Shown: positions 1 to 5,869 of the stretch, piece after piece
Numbering within the stretch: position 1 is the first letter of the stretch
Layout: every line of letters starts with the position of its first letter
NCBI GenBank assembly: GCA_049974095.1
Contig: JBMFJD010000017.1
Coordinates: forward strand, 1-5,869
DNA: 5,869 nt
From: Nanopusillaceae archaeon
GTDB lineage: Archaea; Nanobdellota; Nanobdellia; Nanobdellales; Nanobdellaceae
Direction of reading: 5' to 3'
Translations under genes and position numbers: made by a program
The notes under the pieces: model-generated
What the model was told of the DNA's origin: nothing
What the model saw: the letters and a program-made list of their open reading frames with translations, nothing else
Databases searched by the model: none

Positions 1-152
1 GAAATTATAAAGATATTAGTAATATAATAAAAGATGAATATTATAATAAGTATGATGTAGATATATCAAAGAAGATATTAGATTTAGATAATGAATATAA
101 AGATATAGTAGAGGATTTATATAATATTGATATATTGAAATTTTTAAATTAG
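1..152 (+). CDS. 3' end of a CDS truncated by the window start (first full codon at nt 3). Probably a fourth member of the tandem paralog family downstream.
   Basis: Frame 3 is open from nt 3 to TAG at 150-152: NYKDISNIIKDEYYNKYDVDISKKILDLDNEYKDIVEDLYNIDILKFLN*. It shares DISKK, an acidic D/Y/E-rich tail and a short hydrophobic C-terminus with paralog C (FDISKKLNEY...YDNIDIDKLLI*). The same TAG + T-run + GTTTTGATG junction follows it. The ORF track omits it because it has no start in the window. Confidence 0.55.
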   Translation, partial: NYKDISNIIKDEYYNKYDVDISKKILDLDNEYKDIVEDLYNIDILKFLN

Positions 153-168
153 TTTTTTGGTTTTGATG
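150..168 (+). repeat. Gene-junction unit A: TAG stop + T6 + GG + GTTTTGATG. This is an orphan gene start; only a 9-codon mini-ORF follows.
   Basis: Sequence is TAGTTTTTTGGTTTTGATG, with the exact 9-mer at 160-168. The ATG at 166 opens only MFFKRKNKY* (166-195). Confidence 0.6.
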
Positions 169-227
169 TTTTTCAAAAGAAAAAATAAATATTAAAAAAG
201 TTATACTATAAAAAAGTTTTTTCATGG

Positions 228-279
228 AAATGTTTATTTATTGACAAATATTTATAAATATTTTCTATAACATTATTTT
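228..279 (+). promoter_or_regulatory. Promoter-like AT-rich spacer upstream of CDS 280-729 (TATA-box-like or sigma70-like elements).
   Basis: Elements: AAATGTTTAT (228-237, also at 3783-3792); AAATATTTATAA (246-257, also at 2049-2060); TTTATAAATA (251-260) beginning 29 nt before the ATG at 280. An alternative reading is TTGACA (241-246), a 19-nt spacer, then TATAAC (266-271). Either reading puts the transcription start at or next to the ATG, giving a leaderless mRNA. There is no SD. AT-rich DNA produces such matches by chance. Confidence 0.35.
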
Positions 280-729
280 ATGGCGTTGGAAATAACAAAG
301 GAAATAATAGATGCATTAAATGAAGAGGTAGAGACGGTAGGGGATAAAATGAGAAATATAGAAATAGCAACAATAAAGATTGTAGATAACAAAGTTTTGG
401 AAGTACAACTTTCAAATAAACAATATCCTTTTAGGGTAGCGTTAACTGATGAGACGGAATTATTAATATCAAATAAAGAATTAATAAATATATGGGTTAA
501 ATACATGAAAGAGATGTTTAGGGAGTATGAGGTAAGTTATTATAATTATAGTGATGAGGATGGGGATAATTTATATGTAAGGTTTACGGTATATAAAAAA
601 TTCAATGATAAACTTATGAATATGATAACCTGGGATTTTCAAATTAGGAATAAAAAAAGTATTAGCATACCATCAGATTTATTGAAAAGGTTTGTTTATG
701 AAAAGTTTAATATTATTTTTGTTTATTAG
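280..729 (+). CDS. Hypothetical protein, 149 aa, no recognisable domain.
   Basis: ORF track 280..729. It has an ATG start, the same purine-rich, C-poor codon usage as its neighbours, and a TAG stop embedded in junction unit B. I recognised no catalytic or binding motif. Confidence 0.7.
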   Translation: MALEITKEIIDALNEEVETVGDKMRNIEIATIKIVDNKVLEVQLSNKQYPFRVALTDETELLISNKELINIWVKYMKEMFREYEVSYYNYSDEDGDNLYVRFTVYKKFNDKLMNMITWDFQIRNKKSISIPSDLLKRFVYEKFNIIFVY

Positions 730-749
730 TTTTTTTTATTGTTTTGATG
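727..749 (+). repeat. Gene-junction unit B: TAG stop + T8 + ATT + GTTTTGATG.
   Basis: Sequence is TAGTTTTTTTTATTGTTTTGATG. TAG at 727-729 ends the upstream CDS and ATG at 747-749 starts the next. Confidence 0.65.
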
Positions 750-1592
750 AATGCAAAAAGTAAATTGCTAGGGGAAATAAAATATTATTTAGAGAAATTT
801 AGGAAAAGGGGATTAGAGGTTAATATAAGGGAATGGAAAACAATGATGGAAATAGAGATTAATTATATTAACTTTGAAAAACAAAAAGAAATTATTAATG
901 AACTTATAAAAGTACATGAAATAAAGAAAAAATATTTAAGAAATAAGGAATTAGAGTATTTTAATAGATTATTAGAGGATTATTTACGTATTAGGATAAC
1001 ACATTATTTTATTAATAAAAAATTGAATGAATTGAAAAGGGTAAGAGATGGGTTAAAAAGTTTGTATGAAAATTATGATGAAAATGAATATTTGGAACAA
1101 TTAAAAAGCGAAATAGAAATTAAATTTAATAGATTGCTAGAGGATATAAAGGATATTGAAAATAAGGAAAAAGAAATAAAGAGATTAATAGAGAAATATT
1201 TAAAGTATTTGAATAAGGAAATTGAATATGATGAGGAAATAAAAGGGATTGAGGAATGGATGAATAAGGGAGGATTTAAGAATAGTAAATTAATGAGGAT
1301 TATAAAAGATAAAATAAAGAGTATATTAAATAATAAAAATATTAAGTTATTTTGGTTTGGTAATGGTATGATTTTAGTAATGGTTTATGAAAATAAATAT
1401 TTCTATAGAGGATGGATTTATGAAAATAATAAGTTTTATGTTATTGATTTAAGAAATAATAAGTATATGGATGTAAGTAATTTTATAGGTAATAGGTATG
1501 GGGGAAGAATATTAAAAATGCTGGGGGATGATAGAGATAGAGATATAATTTATGATATAAGGGAAAGGTCAATATATGATTTTTTAGTTTAG
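747..1592 (+). CDS. Paralog A of an uncharacterised three-part family: N-terminal alpha/beta region, central K/E/L-rich helical region, C-terminal beta-rich region.
   Basis: ORF track 744..1592 starts at TTG. I prefer the ATG at 747 supplied by the junction 9-mer. Full-length similarity to 2090-2962 and 2976-3773: NFEKQKEII; LNELKRVRDGLKSLYENYDENEYLEQL; KYLKYLNKEIEYDEEI; NKFYVIDLRNNKYMDVS. I recognised no known domain. Confidence 0.85.
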   Translation: MNAKSKLLGEIKYYLEKFRKRGLEVNIREWKTMMEIEINYINFEKQKEIINELIKVHEIKKKYLRNKELEYFNRLLEDYLRIRITHYFINKKLNELKRVRDGLKSLYENYDENEYLEQLKSEIEIKFNRLLEDIKDIENKEKEIKRLIEKYLKYLNKEIEYDEEIKGIEEWMNKGGFKNSKLMRIIKDKIKSILNNKNIKLFWFGNGMILVMVYENKYFYRGWIYENNKFYVIDLRNNKYMDVSNFIGNRYGGRILKMLGDDRDRDIIYDIRERSIYDFLV

Positions 1593-1606
1593 TTTTTGTT
1601 TTGATG
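1590..1606 (+). repeat. Gene-junction unit C: TAG stop + T5 + GTTTTGATG.
   Basis: Sequence is TAGTTTTTGTTTTGATG. TAG at 1590-1592 ends paralog A and ATG at 1604-1606 starts the next CDS. Confidence 0.65.
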
Positions 1607-2014
1607 GCGGAAAACAACAATTCGGATTTGGTTTTTAAATTGAGAAATGGAAAATTAGAAGAGAAAGATATAGCGGAATTAGTAAAAAGGGCATTAGAAG
1701 AAAGAAATGAGGAAAGTTATTATTTATTGAAAGTTAGGGAATGGGACGAAGTATATGAAAGGTATGAAAGTATAAAAGAAGTAAAAATTATTTATGGAAA
1801 TGCGGAAAAGATATTAATAAATGAGGAATATAATTATGATGAGAAAAGAAAAGAAAGAGAATATATAATAATTCCAAAAGATAGATTGGTTATATTATTG
1901 GATAGAGAATATGTATATTCAGAAAGTAAAGGGGAAAGGGAGGGGCTTACGGTTTTTGTATTTACTGGCGATGGCTGGCATTCTCATACAGTCTCTGAAA
2001 TAAATTATTTCTAA
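1604..2014 (+). CDS. Hypothetical protein, about 136 aa, no recognisable domain.
   Basis: ORF track 1601..2014 starts at TTG; the ATG is at 1604. It has the same compositional signature as its neighbours and a TAA stop followed by a doubled T-run/TAG unit. The C-terminus GLTVFVFTGDGWHSHTVSEINYF looks beta-rich. No motif recognised. Confidence 0.7.
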   Translation: MAENNNSDLVFKLRNGKLEEKDIAELVKRALEERNEESYYLLKVREWDEVYERYESIKEVKIIYGNAEKILINEEYNYDEKRKEREYIIIPKDRLVILLDREYVYSESKGEREGLTVFVFTGDGWHSHTVSEINYF

Positions 2015-2039
2015 TTTTTTAGTTTTTTTAGTTTTGATG
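2012..2039 (+). repeat. Gene-junction unit D: TAA stop + T6 + AG + T7 + A + GTTTTGATG. This is an orphan gene start; only a 7-codon mini-ORF follows.
   Basis: Sequence is TAATTTTTTAGTTTTTTTAGTTTTGATG, with the exact 9-mer at 2031-2039. The ATG at 2037 opens only MIFNKYL* (2037-2060). Confidence 0.6.
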
Positions 2040-2040
2040 A

Positions 2041-2083
2041 TTTTCAATAAATATTTATAAGGTTTTAATATAATTATATTATA
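2041..2083 (+). promoter_or_regulatory. Promoter-like AT-rich spacer upstream of paralog B.
   Basis: AAATATTTATAA (2049-2060) is identical to 246-257. TTTATAAGG starts at 2054, 30 nt before G2084 of the next GTTTTGATG. A second TATA-like run, TTTTAATATAAT, lies at 2063-2074. An alternative sigma70-like reading is TTGATG (2034-2039), a 16-nt spacer, then TATAAG (2056-2061). Confidence 0.35.
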
Positions 2084-2092
2084 GTTTTGATG
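2082..2092 (+). repeat. Gene-start unit E: TAGTTTTGATG, with no upstream CDS stop attached.
   Basis: The exact 9-mer is at 2084-2092. ATG at 2090-2092 starts paralog B. Confidence 0.6.
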
Positions 2093-2962
2093 GAAGAGGA
2101 AGAAAAAATATTAAAAGAAATAAAAGAAATAGTAGAAAGGTTTAGGGATAGAGGGTTAAAGATAGAGATGGAAGAAAAGGATAATATGATAAGTATACTT
2201 ATGACATATGAAAATTTTGAAAAACAAAGGGAGATAATAGGGAGTATTTCAAAAAAGTATAAAATAAGGTTAAATAGGGTAAGGAAAGAATATTTAAAAT
2301 ATGTTAAAAAGCTTTTAGAGGAACCTAAAACTATAATAGTTTATTATGTTTTAGCATATAAGAATAAAGATAATTTATTAGAGGTAAAGGAATTTTTAGA
2401 GGAAAGTTATAATAAGGATGATGAAAATTATTATTTACAATTGTTAAAGGAAAAATTAGAAAATGAATTTAATAATTTTGTTAAAGAAAATATAAAACCA
2501 TATTTAGAAAGAGAGGAAAAACAATATGCATTATTAAAGAAATATTTAAAGTATTTAAATAAAGAAGTTGATTATAATGAGGAAATAGAAAATATTGAAT
2601 CTTTATTAAATAGGGTTTATTATAAAGGGGATTATCATTTAAGTGATGATATATATAAACTATATGCATTAATAAGGAAAAAAGTAAGGATGGTTATTAA
2701 TCAAAAAAATATTAAATATATTAAAATTGATCATGGTATTTTACTTATTATGACATATAAATACAATTTTAGTGATGAATCAGATATTATATATGAAAAA
2801 AATAAGTTTTACTTAATTGATTTTAGGAATAATAAGGTTATGGATATTAGCAATACTATAGAAAAAGAATATACGGGAGGGGTATTAGAGGTTATTGATG
2901 AGAATAATTTATATATATTGGATGATTTACGTAAAAGGAATATATACGAGTTATTAATTTAG
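2090..2962 (+). CDS. Paralog B of the uncharacterised family.
   Basis: ORF track 2087..2962 starts at TTG; the ATG is at 2090. Shared blocks with A and C: NFEKQREII; KYLKYLNKEVDYNEEI; NKFYLIDFRNNKVMDIS; C-terminal NIYELLI*. Confidence 0.85.
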   Translation: MEEEEKILKEIKEIVERFRDRGLKIEMEEKDNMISILMTYENFEKQREIIGSISKKYKIRLNRVRKEYLKYVKKLLEEPKTIIVYYVLAYKNKDNLLEVKEFLEESYNKDDENYYLQLLKEKLENEFNNFVKENIKPYLEREEKQYALLKKYLKYLNKEVDYNEEIENIESLLNRVYYKGDYHLSDDIYKLYALIRKKVRMVINQKNIKYIKIDHGILLIMTYKYNFSDESDIIYEKNKFYLIDFRNNKVMDISNTIEKEYTGGVLEVIDENNLYILDDLRKRNIYELLI

Positions 2963-2978
2963 TTTTATTGTTTTGATG
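2960..2978 (+). repeat. Gene-junction unit F: TAG stop + T4 + ATT + GTTTTGATG.
   Basis: Sequence is TAGTTTTATTGTTTTGATG. TAG at 2960-2962 ends paralog B and ATG at 2976-2978 starts paralog C. Confidence 0.65.
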
Positions 2979-3773
2979 GATAGTTTATTATGGGAGATTA
3001 GGATTTTGTTAGAAAAATTAGTTAAGGATAAGGGATTATATGTGTATGAAAAAGAAAAGGTAGGGGATTCATGGATAGATATCAATATATATTATACAAA
3101 TGTTAAAAAACAAAAAGAGATGGTAGAGGAATTATTAAGAAAAAATAATATTGATAAAAGGTATTATAGATTTTTTAGTGATTTATTGGATAAAAGTTAT
3201 AAAATTGAAATTCTTAGTGATTACGTAAGTAAAAGAATGAATGAATTAAGAAAATTAAGGGATAAATTGAAAGAAATATATGAAAATTTTAGGGAGGATG
3301 ATTATTTAAGAAAATTAGAGGATAATATAAATGAGGAATTTAAATATGATTTAGAGGATTTAAATAATTATTTAAAAGAAGAAAAATTATATTTGGATTA
3401 TTTAAATGGAAAAATTGATTATAATAAGGATATAAAAGATTTTGAGGATGATTTAATTTTTAGTGATGAATTAAAATATAAATCATGGATCTATAGAAAA
3501 ATAAAAAGATATATTAAGAAATTATTGAATAGTAGGAAATTTAAAATTATATGGATTAAAAGAGGGTTTGTTTTAGTAATATTATATAAAGATAAAGGGG
3601 ATTTTGGAAATGGTAAACATGTATATTTTTATAATAAGTTTTACTTAATTGATTTGAGAAATAATAAAATATTTGATATAAGTAAAAAATTGAATGAATA
3701 TATTGATGAGTTTAGGGATGATGATATATTTGATATGTATGATAATATAGATATAGATAAATTATTAATATAG
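2976..3773 (+). CDS. Paralog C of the uncharacterised family.
   Basis: ORF track 2973..3773 starts at TTG; the ATG is at 2976. Shared blocks: NVKKQKEMV; MNELRKLRDKLKEIYENFREDDYLRKL; LYLDYLNGKIDYNKDI; NKFYLIDLRNNKIFDIS; C-terminal IDKLLI*. The translated protein has no Ala, Pro or Cys. Confidence 0.85.
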   Translation: MDSLLWEIRILLEKLVKDKGLYVYEKEKVGDSWIDINIYYTNVKKQKEMVEELLRKNNIDKRYYRFFSDLLDKSYKIEILSDYVSKRMNELRKLRDKLKEIYENFREDDYLRKLEDNINEEFKYDLEDLNNYLKEEKLYLDYLNGKIDYNKDIKDFEDDLIFSDELKYKSWIYRKIKRYIKKLLNSRKFKIIWIKRGFVLVILYKDKGDFGNGKHVYFYNKFYLIDLRNNKIFDISKKLNEYIDEFRDDDIFDMYDNIDIDKLLI

Positions 3774-3819
3774 GTTTTTGATAAATGTTTATATGTGTTT
3801 TTTATAATATATAATATAA
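3774..3819 (+). promoter_or_regulatory. Promoter-like AT-rich spacer upstream of the AAA+ ATPase gene.
   Basis: A degenerate junction, TAGGTTTTTGATAAATG, lies at 3771-3787. AAATGTTTAT (3783-3792) is identical to 228-237. TTTATATG (3788-3795) starts 32 nt before G3820. TTTATAATAT lies at 3801-3810. An alternative sigma70-like reading is TTGATA (3778-3783), a 19-nt spacer, then TATAAT (3803-3808). Confidence 0.35.
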
Positions 3820-3828
3820 GTTTTGATG
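3818..3828 (+). repeat. Gene-start unit G: AAGTTTTGATG.
   Basis: The exact 9-mer is at 3820-3828. ATG at 3826-3828 starts the ATPase CDS. Confidence 0.6.
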
Positions 3829-4950
3829 ACGGAAAAACAAAGTAATTTATTAAGAATATTTGAGAGAGCTAGAAAAGAAAAGGTAGCAATAGGATTGTTT
3901 GGGGGTTATGGAATAGGAAAGAGTAGTTTGATTTATCAATATTCATTAATGAAAAGTATGGAATCTGGTAGAGAATTAAAAATATGGCATGAATTGACGG
4001 AGAGAGAGAAAAAAGAGATATTAGAAAATCCTGAAAAGTACTTTATAGTAGTAGATATTAAGGGTAGCTTAATATCTTTGGATAATTTAGTTATACCAAT
4101 ACCTGTAAATGATGGGATAAAATGGGAGGTACCTTTATGGATGAAAGTATTAGAAAATGAGAAAAGTATGGGGATATTATTTATTGATGAGGTTAATATG
4201 ACATTACCATCATTACAAAGTTTATTATTTGAATTAGTATTTCAAAGAAAGTTGGGAGAAAGTACAATAAAGGGGGATGTATTAATAATTACTGCGGGAA
4301 ATGATCTAGAAAGCAATAATGTAGCTAAAGAATTACCACAACCACTTATAAATAGAATGATATTTATTAATGCAAATGAAATATTTGACATTGATGCATG
4401 GTTAGAATATGCAAAAAATGTTAATATTGATAATAGAATAATAGGATGGGTATTATTTAATAATAGAAATATTAGTTATTCTAATGATGTTATGAAACAA
4501 TCAACCACACCTAGATCTTTGGAAATGTTAAGTAAGATGATTAATGGGGAAAAAGATATGAATTATATAAGAATGGTAGCATATGGATTATTAGAACCTA
4601 ATGATGCATTACAATTTACTGCATTTATAGAATTATATGAAAAGTTTAGTGATATAGATAAGTATATTGATAATATTGAATTATTATATGATCTTAAGGA
4701 AGATGAGAGGATAATAATTATGATGAAAATAACAGAAAGATATATTAATGATAAGTTAACATTAGAGAAATATTATAATATATTGGATGGGTTAAGTAAT
4801 ATAAGTAAAATGTTAGTGGTATTTTCATTAAGGTATTTGAAATATCAAAATAGTGATAAGTTTAAGATATTGTTAGATAAGGTAATAAAAGAAAATGGTA
4901 AGGTTTACAATTTGTTAGGGCAAATGTTAGAATTTGAAAATAAATTATGA
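3826..4950 (+). CDS. MoxR-like (AAA_5 / CbbQ-NorQ-GvpN type) AAA+ ATPase.
   Basis: Walker A GGYGIGKS (3901-3924). Walker B ILFIDE (4174-4191). Sensor-1-like LIITAGN (Asn at 4300-4302). PLINRM follows at the position of the MoxR-type ALLDRF arginine motif. The single AAA+ core is followed by a helical C-terminal region of about 190 aa. The gene sits directly upstream of, and overlaps, a VWA-type partner, which is the classic MoxR arrangement. ORF track 3823..4950 starts at TTG. Confidence 0.85.
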   Translation: MTEKQSNLLRIFERARKEKVAIGLFGGYGIGKSSLIYQYSLMKSMESGRELKIWHELTEREKKEILENPEKYFIVVDIKGSLISLDNLVIPIPVNDGIKWEVPLWMKVLENEKSMGILFIDEVNMTLPSLQSLLFELVFQRKLGESTIKGDVLIITAGNDLESNNVAKELPQPLINRMIFINANEIFDIDAWLEYAKNVNIDNRIIGWVLFNNRNISYSNDVMKQSTTPRSLEMLSKMINGEKDMNYIRMVAYGLLEPNDALQFTAFIELYEKFSDIDKYIDNIELLYDLKEDERIIIMMKITERYINDKLTLEKYYNILDGLSNISKMLVVFSLRYLKYQNSDKFKILLDKVIKENGKVYNLLGQMLEFENKL

Positions 4951-5869
4951 TGGATGAGGAATTATTAAAGTTAGTAATTACTAAAAATTTTCCATTGTTT
5001 GCACCAATATTAAGTAAGATAAGAATTAAAGAAAGTAGGGAAATATCATATGTGGCGGGATTGAATTATAAAGAAAAAACAATATATATTAATCCTGATG
5101 AATTCAATGAATATATTAGTAAAGAAAAAATGTTTATAATATCACATGAAATAATGCATTATCTATTAGTACATGATCCTGAAGCATTGAGGGATAAAAA
5201 TTTATTATTAGTTTTTAATTTAGTTAGGGATGCCCAAATAAATCATATATTACATAAACAAATGAAATATATGGCAAGGGGGGTTATAACATTGGATATA
5301 TTAGAAAGGATGAGCGAAAAAGTAAAAGAATACTTTGAGGGGGATGTTGAGAAATTCCTTAATGAGGATGAGTATTTTATTGTTAAATTGATGTTAGAGG
5401 ATAAGAAAGTTAATAATATGGTTAATAAGATGATTGATGTATTAGAAAATAATAGTGATAACCTAGATGAAACTAGTGAAAAAATTAGAGATATATTAAA
5501 GGAGAATGGGGTTAATATAGATATTGATGAAATTAGTAAGAATATAGTAAAAGAATATAATGAAAGTAAGGAATTGGGAGAAATGAGCGATGAGGAAATA
5601 AAAGAAATGGTTAATGAGGGTATGGAAATGTTAGAGAAAGGTATGTTATTAAGTAAAATGCTTAATCCTGAAAGTAAGGAATTAGATATAAAGTTAAGGA
5701 AAAAGAGGATTAAATGGAAAGAAGCATTAAGGTATATTATGAGTGAGATAGGGGCATTGGCAACTGATTATGATTTAACAAAATTGGATAAAAAAGCATG
5801 GGTATTAAAGACATATGTACCTGGGGTTATAAAGGAAAATGAAAGTATTAATGTAATAATTGGTATAGA
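4947..5869 (+). CDS. Putative zinc metallopeptidase-domain / VWA-like domain protein (DUF2201_N + DUF2201-type architecture), 3'-truncated by the window end.
   Basis: I translated this frame by hand from ATG 4947 (or ATG 4950) to the window end and found no stop: MMDEELLKLVITKNFPLFAPILSKIRIKESREISYVAGLNYKEKTIYINPDEFNEYISKEKMFIISHEIMHYLLVHDPEAL... The HEIMH motif is at 5145-5159, with a third His at 5172-5174 (HExxHxxxxH). The layout matches the putative metallopeptidase domain usually fused to a VWA-like domain: a hydrophobic FPLFA... helix, then '(T)IYINPDEF', then HExxH. The final residues ...YVPGVIKENESINVIIGI(D/E) look like the first beta-strand leading into a MIDAS DxSxS motif just beyond the window. 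The start overlaps the ATPase stop (ATGA / TGATG). Confidence 0.8.
   Translation, partial: MMDEELLKLVITKNFPLFAPILSKIRIKESREISYVAGLNYKEKTIYINPDEFNEYISKEKMFIISHEIMHYLLVHDPEALRDKNLLLVFNLVRDAQINHILHKQMKYMARGVITLDILERMSEKVKEYFEGDVEKFLNEDEYFIVKLMLEDKKVNNMVNKMIDVLENNSDNLDETSEKIRDILKENGVNIDIDEISKNIVKEYNESKELGEMSDEEIKEMVNEGMEMLEKGMLLSKMLNPESKELDIKLRKKRIKWKEALRYIMSEIGALATDYDLTKLDKKAWVLKTYVPGVIKENESINVIIGI

Follow-up and report, generated by a model that had tools for sequence, protein, structure and literature searches.

A MoxR-class AAA+ ATPase and its predicted metallopeptidase-VWA partner, encoded downstream of an orphan paralog family in an apparent archaeal virus or mobile element

The 5,869-bp DNA stretch analyzed here (hereinafter, the window) is an entire contig of a metagenome-assembled genome (MAG) labelled Nanopusillaceae archaeon. 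Its distal part, nucleotides (nt) 3826-5869, encodes two proteins, namely, a MoxR-class AAA+ ATPase and, immediately downstream, a partner protein of the DUF2201 family in which a predicted N-terminal zincin-like metallopeptidase precedes a C-terminal VWA domain. The interpretation that we favor, with a probability of roughly 0.6, is that the two genes form a translationally coupled operon of an AT-rich archaeal virus or other mobile element, whereby a MoxR ring and its cognate peptidase-VWA partner would remodel or mature a client protein; as to the identity of the parts, we consider it very probably correct. The pair is a new archaeal member of a kind that has already been described in phages. 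An original prediction made from the window sequence had identified the two proteins in these terms and had proposed that the paralogous genes upstream encode clients or effectors of the pair. This prediction is partly supported, being right on the gene identities and, plausibly, on the link to the paralogs.

All coordinates proposed for the pair, namely those of the Walker A, Walker B and sensor 1 motifs of the ATPase, the ATGA overlap between the genes and the HEIMHYLLVH sequence of the partner, proved correct on translation (Table 1). A search of 5.8 billion proteins yielded a family set of 16 ATPase relatives, 15 of which were aligned. Throughout this alignment, G26, G29, G31, K32 and S33 of the Walker A motif, D121 of the Walker B motif, and N159, R177 and R230 are invariant, and E122 is nearly so. 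The roles of sensor 1, arginine finger and sensor 2 are assigned to the latter three invariant residues by motif position, and the PLINRM motif around R177 takes the form PLxNRF in the relatives. The alignment also reveals a clade-specific insertion of ~24 amino acids (aa) after the Walker A helix. The match to PHROG 1297 (phrog_1297) spans nearly the full ATPase (E = 1.3e-39). The expectation that the protein would fall into AAA_5/MoxR holds for the family, although not for the window protein taken singly (see below): AAA_5 is detected in 13 of the 15 family members (best E = 1.6e-10), AAA_3 in four and bpMoxR in three, and midasin is the best match of the family profile in the PDB (2.8e-11). 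Profiles were required for such comparisons, single-sequence phmmer searches of the PDB with the ATPase and the partner having produced only noise or borderline matches.

The structural predictions point in the same direction. The AlphaFold (AF2) monomer model of the ATPase, built on the family alignment with a mean pLDDT of 87.1, contains a beta-hairpin (strands 90-94 and 97-101) between beta2 and the Walker B strand, that is, at the place of the helix-2 insert, and a second, short hairpin (~142-147) ahead of the sensor-1 strand, both as read from the DSSP string of the model rather than from a superposition. The helix-2 insert and the pre-sensor-1 hairpin are the marks of the MoxR/dynein/MCM clade. 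When this model was compared with the PDB using Foldseek, ranks 1-18 were all occupied by NorQ (alone or with the NorD VWA domain) and CbbQ2, at E = 5e-9 to 2.5e-6; NorQ was the top match (5e-9), followed by CbbQ2 and cso-CbbQ, and dynein, midasin, Lon and RuvB appeared farther down. An extra helical domain is predicted at the C-terminus of the ATPase (~residues 245-374). On the strength of the family comparisons and the model, we accept the protein as a predicted MoxR-class AAA+ ATPase of a divergent subfamily.

The window, from which a partial partner protein is recorded, ends two bases into the codon for the first aspartate of the putative metal ion-dependent adhesion site (MIDAS), right after the first VWA strand, INVIIGI. 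Two further contigs encode this ATPase, namely, a 28,986-bp JGI contig (3300041912 Ga0453806_32047), bases 1-17,177 of which (L003) are 99.94% identical to window positions 726-5869, and a 2.5-kb Logan contig (L004) that is 100% identical to positions 3784-5869, so the full 443-aa partner and its VWA domain, which lies past the window, were read from these two sources. Both continue with INVIIGIDVSGSISD (IGIDVSGS), followed by GYGGT and ILTDG. The DxSxS motif that had been predicted just after nt 5869 is thus present, DVSGS beginning in the cut codon, and the MIDAS is complete: D308-V-S310-G-S312, T372 (GGT) and D398 (TDG). Among the partner sequences, S312 is invariant, and D308, S310, T372 and D398 are nearly invariant, as are H67, E68 and H71 of the HExxHxxxxH motif. 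Downstream of the latter is a conserved N91/D95/N99 motif, and conservation makes either H76 or D95 a candidate for the third zinc ligand. The peptidase domain is connected to the VWA domain by an acidic helical linker (~residues 130-290). In agreement with the domains that the original prediction had named, the 443-aa protein exceeds the Pfam cut-offs for DUF2201_N (PF13203; 37.9 bits against 23.2) and for the DUF2201 VWA-like domain (PF09967; 29.1 against 26.4); it reaches 26.4 for VWA_CoxE, at the cut-off, and VWA_2 and VWA are matched as well. The full partner matches PHROG 1314 (phrog_1314; E = 9.3e-40), and its profile matches include integrin I domains, the minigluzincin MJ1213 and M48 peptidases. 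We know of no peptidase domain like that of the partner in NorD or CbbO. PHROG 1314 and several GenBank phage records label this family 'HNH endonuclease', for example, Bacillus phage G gp576 (L001 10434-10931) and the proteins of Vibrio phages pv27, SRILMA and TDDLMA; since the sequence offers no support for it, the label is apparently a propagated misannotation.

The two genes belong together far beyond the window. In tblastn searches, 425 phage records contained members of the ATPase family, among them those of Bacillus phage G, N4-like Schitoviridae, cyanophage S-TIM5 and Erwinia, Serratia and Salmonella jumbo phages. From scans with the family alignment, the best 80 of 197 viral relatives (IMG/VR) and the best 80 of 549 bacterial relatives (185,579 species-representative genomes) were kept, 160 loci in all. 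A partner homolog is present in 69 of the 80 viral loci, downstream on the same strand in 68 and ~6 kb upstream in one, and in each of the 11 loci without it, less than 1 kb remains beyond the ATPase gene; the corresponding count for bacteria is 73 of 80, with less than 700 nt left in six of the seven exceptions. The linkage is kept in ~99% of the testable viral and bacterial loci and is, then, nearly obligatory; a partner is found downstream on the same strand also in all nine other archaeal loci that we recovered. Each of the 54 distinct full-length viral partners retains both HExxHxxxxH and DxSGS, so the peptidase and MIDAS sites appear to be under selection. The phage or bacterial homologs are just 23-32% identical to the window proteins. 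Iyer et al. (2021) noticed the same architecture, an ATPase together with a metallopeptidase-vWA protein, in jumbo phages of group 2.2 and proposed that it combines chaperone function with peptidolytic processing in virion assembly (PMC7824862).

The slot between the two genes is often occupied. In 37 of the 69 viral loci it holds a conserved ~220-aa protein with a weak match to phrog_1965 (e.g., L013 4377-5036, L015 10991-11644), nine further viral loci have there a ~300-350-aa protein with a weak DUF3150 match, and the archaeal relative L010 has an unrelated 254-aa gene (1204-1968). The ATPase-partner pair may, therefore, often work with a variable third protein. The phage middle protein was compared with the paralogs encoded upstream of the window pair and rejected as a relative (hhalign E = 0.59). 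A 433-aa protein of the N4-like phage VBP47, VPNG_00013, was likewise rejected as a candidate partner, given its 11% identity, the missing motifs and the failure to match any of the hidden Markov models (HMMs).

In archaea, the pair has a different constant neighbor. In every archaeal relative with a visible upstream flank, a member of one paralogous family is located directly upstream of the ATPase: in L172 and L176 (72% ATPase identity), a paralog cut by the contig end; in L006, L008 and L009 (64%), a full-length copy and a copy of the C-terminal half; and in L005 (43%), a 281-aa protein that is recognized by the paralog HMM (3.5e-9) and aligns end to end. The same layout is implied, solely by the NCBI protein numbering (MGC9133232-MGC9133237), for a second copy in the same MAG, on a 59,894-bp contig, where the ATPase, the partner and the paralog are 89%, 87% and 48% identical to those of the window; this copy could mean that the bin holds two related elements or, alternatively, that one element is present both integrated and free. 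Pairs that never occur with the paralogs would have spoken against the original prediction; the association is seen in the archaeal loci, although not in the viral and bacterial ones, and on all three points that had been named as possible refutations (the VWA domain with its MIDAS, the placement in AAA_5/MoxR and this association) the outcome favored the prediction. L005 has almost no other genes in common with the window-type contigs, and it is the persistence of the trio at 43% identity, with almost nothing else shared, that supports a functional link between the paralogs and the pair. The adjacency thus makes the proposed link plausible, although it does not demonstrate that the paralogs are clients.

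The paralog family itself is an orphan: just 15 members were found when 1.84 billion representative proteins were searched exhaustively with HMMER, and the paralogs belong to no Pfam or PHROG family. The AF2 model of paralog 1, built from 15 sequences with a pLDDT of 91.2, has an alpha/beta domain at the N-terminus, followed by a 44-residue helix and, at the C-terminus, a six-stranded beta domain, and it gave no significant Foldseek match in the PDB or BFVD; N228 and D234, in the motif NNKFYLIDLRNNK of the beta domain, are invariant in the family. Within one array, the paralogs are 31-48% identical, and their number varies: L003 has five, one of which (L003 2118-2957) is missing from the window, and in L175, paralogs 1 and 2 are adjacent, without the 136-aa gene that separates them in the window. 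The first 840 nt of the window are 93% identical to L003 (window 1-840 against L003 1372-2957), compared with 99.94% from window position 726 on. This break, together with the missing paralog, makes it likely that recombination between the 5' ends of paralogs changes the copy number of the array within the population.

These observations suggest the following mechanism. The ATPase presumably forms a hexameric ring, on which the VWA/MIDAS domain of the partner would dock, in the way the VWA finger of NorD enters the NorQ pore (PMC13036017), and/or the MIDAS would bind an acidic residue of the target. ATP hydrolysis might then pull or twist the VWA protein through its long acidic linker, and the movement of the linker would gate or position the peptidase and remodel the bound client. 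The HExxHxxxxH zinc peptidase, if active as predicted, would cut the client held at the MIDAS, proteolytic maturation of the client thus following its unfolding or assembly. For the archaeal lineage, the ~280-aa paralog encoded directly upstream would be the best candidate for the client or for an adaptor. The process served could be maturation of the virion or another particle or, alternatively, host takeover. That the paralogs are a client or adaptor of the pair is a tentative proposal, to which we give somewhat less than even odds; the more specific notion that the pair has gained a dedicated third component, a fast-diversifying ~280-aa family of variable copy number that it would load, remodel or cleave, perhaps with the invariant D234 bound at the MIDAS of the partner, we regard as rather unlikely.

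Several observations weigh against the mechanism outlined above. Conserved synteny in small mobile elements might reflect common descent rather than function. No match to the paralog family was obtained in the 160 viral and bacterial loci of the pair, and many phages have, between the two genes, the different conserved ~220-aa protein, which is unrelated to the paralogs; because the pairs of viruses and bacteria occur without the paralog family, the paralogs cannot be the general or ancestral substrate of the pair. The window ATPase alone falls below every Pfam cut-off (13.4 bits against 22 for AAA_5, E = 0.08; E = 0.0034 for Sigma54_activat), so its placement among the MoxR ATPases draws on the family-level and structural evidence. 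In phage VBP47, the genome ends 3.5 kb away from the ATPase gene, the neighbors of which are small and unannotated, and no structural gene is annotated in the ~9.5 kb around it, which is not an obvious fit to a role in virion assembly. No capsid or other virion gene was recognized on the archaeal contigs and, for this reason, 'virus' is not proven. Finally, full-text literature searches turned up no experimental work on any member of the subfamily.

The location of the VBP47 gene is one of the reasons to consider that the locus is instead a conflict system of the vWA-MoxR ternary type, involved in defense or counter-defense, in which the paralogs would be sensors or effectors that are proteolytically activated upon detection of a competing virus or a host immune factor. 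The paralogs are, indeed, expanded in a lineage-specific manner and diverge fast, with copy numbers that differ between near-identical contigs, and the array includes a homolog of a gene from the terminal region of rudivirus genomes. Moreover, MoxR-vWA cores with peptidase effectors are known among the NTP-dependent conflict systems (PMC7159879). However, the PADLOC models matched neither the ATPase nor the partner nor the paralogs, which leaves the defense-system reading entertained in the original prediction without backing, and NCBIfam naming gave no match either; bpMoxR is matched only weakly, in the three relatives mentioned above; no VMAP, Ubl or other signature component is present; and the paralogs have no recognizable effector domain. 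On balance, we consider a conflict system improbable.

The nature of the element bears on the remaining alternatives as well as on the favored reading. The close relatives, with 43-89% ATPase identity, all come from AT-rich metagenome contigs (21-26% GC). The window, L003-L010 and L172 share this extremely low GC content and show a coding-strand excess of G over C, with skew values reaching 0.9 in 500-nt windows. The window sequence had no exact match in IMG/VR, and scans with a single protein revealed no close relatives in IMG/VR or in GTDB genomes. Among the genes of the related archaeal contigs are those for an MCM helicase and a small AAA protein, together with a rudivirus-type gene and one encoding a thermopsin-like protein. 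The rudivirus-type gene of the window, that for the 136-aa protein, matches phrog_10536 (E = 3.7e-21) and, in tblastn searches, only Sulfolobus islandicus rod-shaped viruses and Acidianus rod-shaped virus 2, at ~32% identity; its homolog in SIRV7 is ORF1, the first annotated gene from the genome end. Crenarchaeal rudiviruses and an element that has been binned with Nanoarchaeota thus have this gene in common. When 20 further proteins from the related loci were scanned against Pfam and PHROG, hardly any matches were obtained.

One might argue that the locus is, rather, a cellular gene cluster of Nanopusillaceae involved in surface or host-attachment biology, for example, in the maturation of secreted or surface proteins. 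In the NCBI binning, the two copies belong to a single Nanopusillaceae MAG, one of them on a contig of 59.9 kb; the GC content of 21-26% fits the family, with Nanopusillus genomes in a comparable range; and a membrane-anchored thermopsin-like protein is conserved nearby. But binning by composition is weak evidence, given that Sulfolobus rudiviruses are similarly AT-rich; in the ~63 kb of related loci, neither tRNA nor Rfam RNA genes were found, and no housekeeping family was matched by the gene products that were scanned; none of the 80 closest relatives kept from the species-representative genomes is archaeal, and the nearest homologs outside the archaeal clade are viral; and the neighbors include MCM and AAA replication-type genes, which are typical of archaeal mobile elements. 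Compared with a compact nanoarchaeal chromosome, an archaeal virus or plasmid is the better fit, and we deem a cellular cluster quite improbable; the assignment of the host to Nanopusillaceae comes from binning.

A role in metal-cofactor insertion or enzyme activation, in the manner of NorQD, CbbQO and CobST and with the HExxH motif as a metal site rather than a protease, appears least credible of all: it would suit NorQ and CbbQ as the closest solved structures and the classic role of MoxR-VWA pairs in metal insertion or enzyme reactivation (PMC13036017, PMC9976466), but no candidate client metalloenzyme is encoded in any archaeal locus, the N-terminal domain of the partner matches peptidase families (DUF2201_N, MJ1213, M48) with the catalytic glutamate conserved, and NorD and CbbO, as described by Iyer et al., have no such N-terminal zinc peptidase (PMC7824862).

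All credible genes of the window are on the + strand (Table 1), on which G strongly exceeds C at an overall GC content of ~23%. The 9-mer GTTTTGATG occurs seven times, always on this strand, against 0.10 copies expected. Five copies (741-749, 1598-1606, 2084-2092, 2970-2978 and 3820-3828) end in the ATG of a gene start, and two (160-168 and 2031-2039) are located ahead of tiny open reading frames (ORFs) of 9 and 7 codons, respectively; this motif might serve as a context for translation initiation or, alternatively, be a scar left behind by recombination as it shuffles the array. The pattern AAATRTTTATA is present in five copies, compared with 0.45 expected. Three of these (246-256, 2049-2059 and 3783-3793) lie 25-45 nt upstream of the genes for the 149-aa orphan, paralog 2 and the ATPase, and a further one (5128-5138) is within the partner gene. 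The placement of the TATA-like elements suggests three transcription units, namely, the 149-aa orphan, paralog 1 and the 136-aa gene; paralogs 2 and 3; and the ATPase with the partner. By its position, AAATGTTTATA is a candidate promoter of the ATPase-partner bicistron. The 149-aa orphan has no Pfam match, and its homolog was found only in the near-identical contig L003.

Table 1. Genes, motifs and putative signals of the window
Feature	Position (nt)	Strand	Remarks
Fourth paralog, C-terminal 49 codons	1..152	+	Cut by contig end; translation matches C-terminus of L003 666-1523
149-aa orphan, head of array	280..729	+	Possible module member
Paralog 1, 281 aa	747..1592	+	Copy used for structure prediction
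136-aa protein inside array	1604..2014	+	Homolog of rudivirus terminal-region ORF; possible module member
Paralog 2, 290 aa	2090..2962	+	Paralog family member
Paralog 3, 265 aa	2976..3773	+	Orphan family; directly upstream of ATPase; candidate third component (client or adaptor)
TATA-box-like element AAATGTTTATA	3783..3793	+	~33-43 nt upstream of ATPase start; candidate archaeal promoter
Junction motif GTTTTGATG	3820..3828	+	Ends in ATPase start codon
Predicted MoxR-class AAA+ ATPase, 374 aa	3826..4950 (ORF 3823/3826-4950)	+	Evidence: phrog_1297, family alignment, Foldseek
Walker A, GGYGIGKS	3901..3924	+	Residues 26-33
Walker B, ILFIDE	4174..4191	+	Residues 117-122 (D121, E122)
Sensor 1, N159 (AGN)	4300..4302	+	
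Arginine-finger position, R177 (PLINRM)	4354..4356	+	
Sensor 2, R230 (TTPRS)	4513..4515	+	
DUF2201-family partner, 5' 307 of 443 codons	4947..5869	+	DUF2201_N E = 1.7e-9 on window part; peptidase predicted
ATGA overlap	4947..4950	+	Partner ATG 4947-4949, ATPase TGA 4948-4950
HEIMHYLLVH (HExxHxxxxH)	5145..5174	+	Partner residues 67-76
N91/D95/N99 motif	5217..5243	+	Downstream of HExxH
First VWA strand, INVIIGI	5847..5867	+	

The longer related contigs show further genes of these elements. A ~590-aa protein with a thermopsin domain (Pfam 1.8e-51) is encoded in L003 (12505-14286, - strand) and in L172 (6752-8527, - strand), the two being 61% identical. It has a hydrophobic, Lys-rich C-terminal tail, is apparently membrane-anchored, and is followed by a small multi-pass membrane protein; conceivably, this is an envelope or surface protein of the element. 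L003 also contains (10499-12446, - strand) a second, unrelated pair of tandem paralogs of 303 and 327 aa, with a homolog (25% identity, E = 7e-17) in the distant L005 (12805-13794), which makes it a further shared core gene.

Among the two-gene modules of tailed phages, the pair ranks with the more widespread ones, and the archaeal version is compact, with overlapping genes, an apparent promoter of its own and an obvious candidate substrate encoded upstream, so that the archaeal trio could reveal what the virus-encoded MoxR-protease machines act on. The pair also adds recognizable genes to the almost wholly dark mobile elements of hot-spring archaea that are binned with Nanopusillaceae. The orphan paralog family, which lies mostly outside 3826-5869, is the more unusual element of the locus. 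Should the paralogs turn out to be a dedicated third component, this would be a new ternary ATPase-adaptor-substrate system, encoded by the otherwise nearly uncharacterized viruses or mobile elements that are associated with Nanoarchaeota.

Among the known systems, the phage pair of PHROG 1297 and PHROG 1314 is the closest counterpart. It shares with the window pair the domain architecture, the gene order on one strand, the HExxHxxxxH and MIDAS motifs and the viral or mobile setting, and the profile matches cover the window proteins nearly over the full length. The differences are the archaeal element as the carrier, the 23-32% identity, the ~24-aa insertion in the ATPase, the direct overlap of the genes where phages commonly have the ~220-aa phrog_1965 gene in between, and the conserved orphan paralog family that is found upstream only in the archaeal loci.

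In NorQ-NorD and CbbQ-CbbO, the ATPases of which are the best structural matches (Foldseek E = 5e-9 to 4e-7, TM ~0.58 on the target), the partner also has a MIDAS-containing VWA domain and is encoded next door. The cryo-EM structure of NorQD shows the VWA finger in the ATPase pore and a remodelled NorD linker, and a long linker, the likely site of force application, is a feature that the window partner shares with these proteins (PMC13036017). By contrast, the sequence identity to NorQ and CbbQ is as low as 12-14%, the window ATPase has the extra C-terminal helical domain, and no respiratory or carbon-fixation client is encoded near the window pair.

The original prediction had also invoked the archaeal bicaudavirus ATV, in which a MoxR protein, p618, and a VWA protein, p892, have been implicated in extracellular tail development (Scheele et al. 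2011, as summarized in PMC7824862). ATV is, likewise, a hot-spring archaeal virus that encodes a MoxR-class ATPase and a VWA protein and, as such, provides a morphogenetic precedent. However, orthology of the window ATPase to p618 was rejected, hhalign aligning only 31 columns around Walker B at a probability of 22%, and so was orthology of the partner to p892 (BLASTP E = 2.2). Furthermore, the ATV genes are ~4 kb apart rather than adjacent, and p892 has no annotated peptidase domain. Because the similarity is barely detectable at best, the analogy stands at the level of the protein classes, MoxR and VWA, and does not extend to orthology.

Finally, the vWA-MoxR-VMAP ternary systems resemble the locus described here in that three components come together, a MoxR ATPase, a vWA protein and a third protein that varies, and peptidase domains are sometimes fused to their vWA component (Kaur et al. 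2020, PMC7159879). These systems, however, were found in multicellular bacteria rather than in archaeal viruses (PMC7159879), and the window module has no VMAP domain; besides, most of the trypsin- or caspase-type peptidases fused in them are catalytically inactive, whereas the predicted active site of the partner family is strictly conserved.

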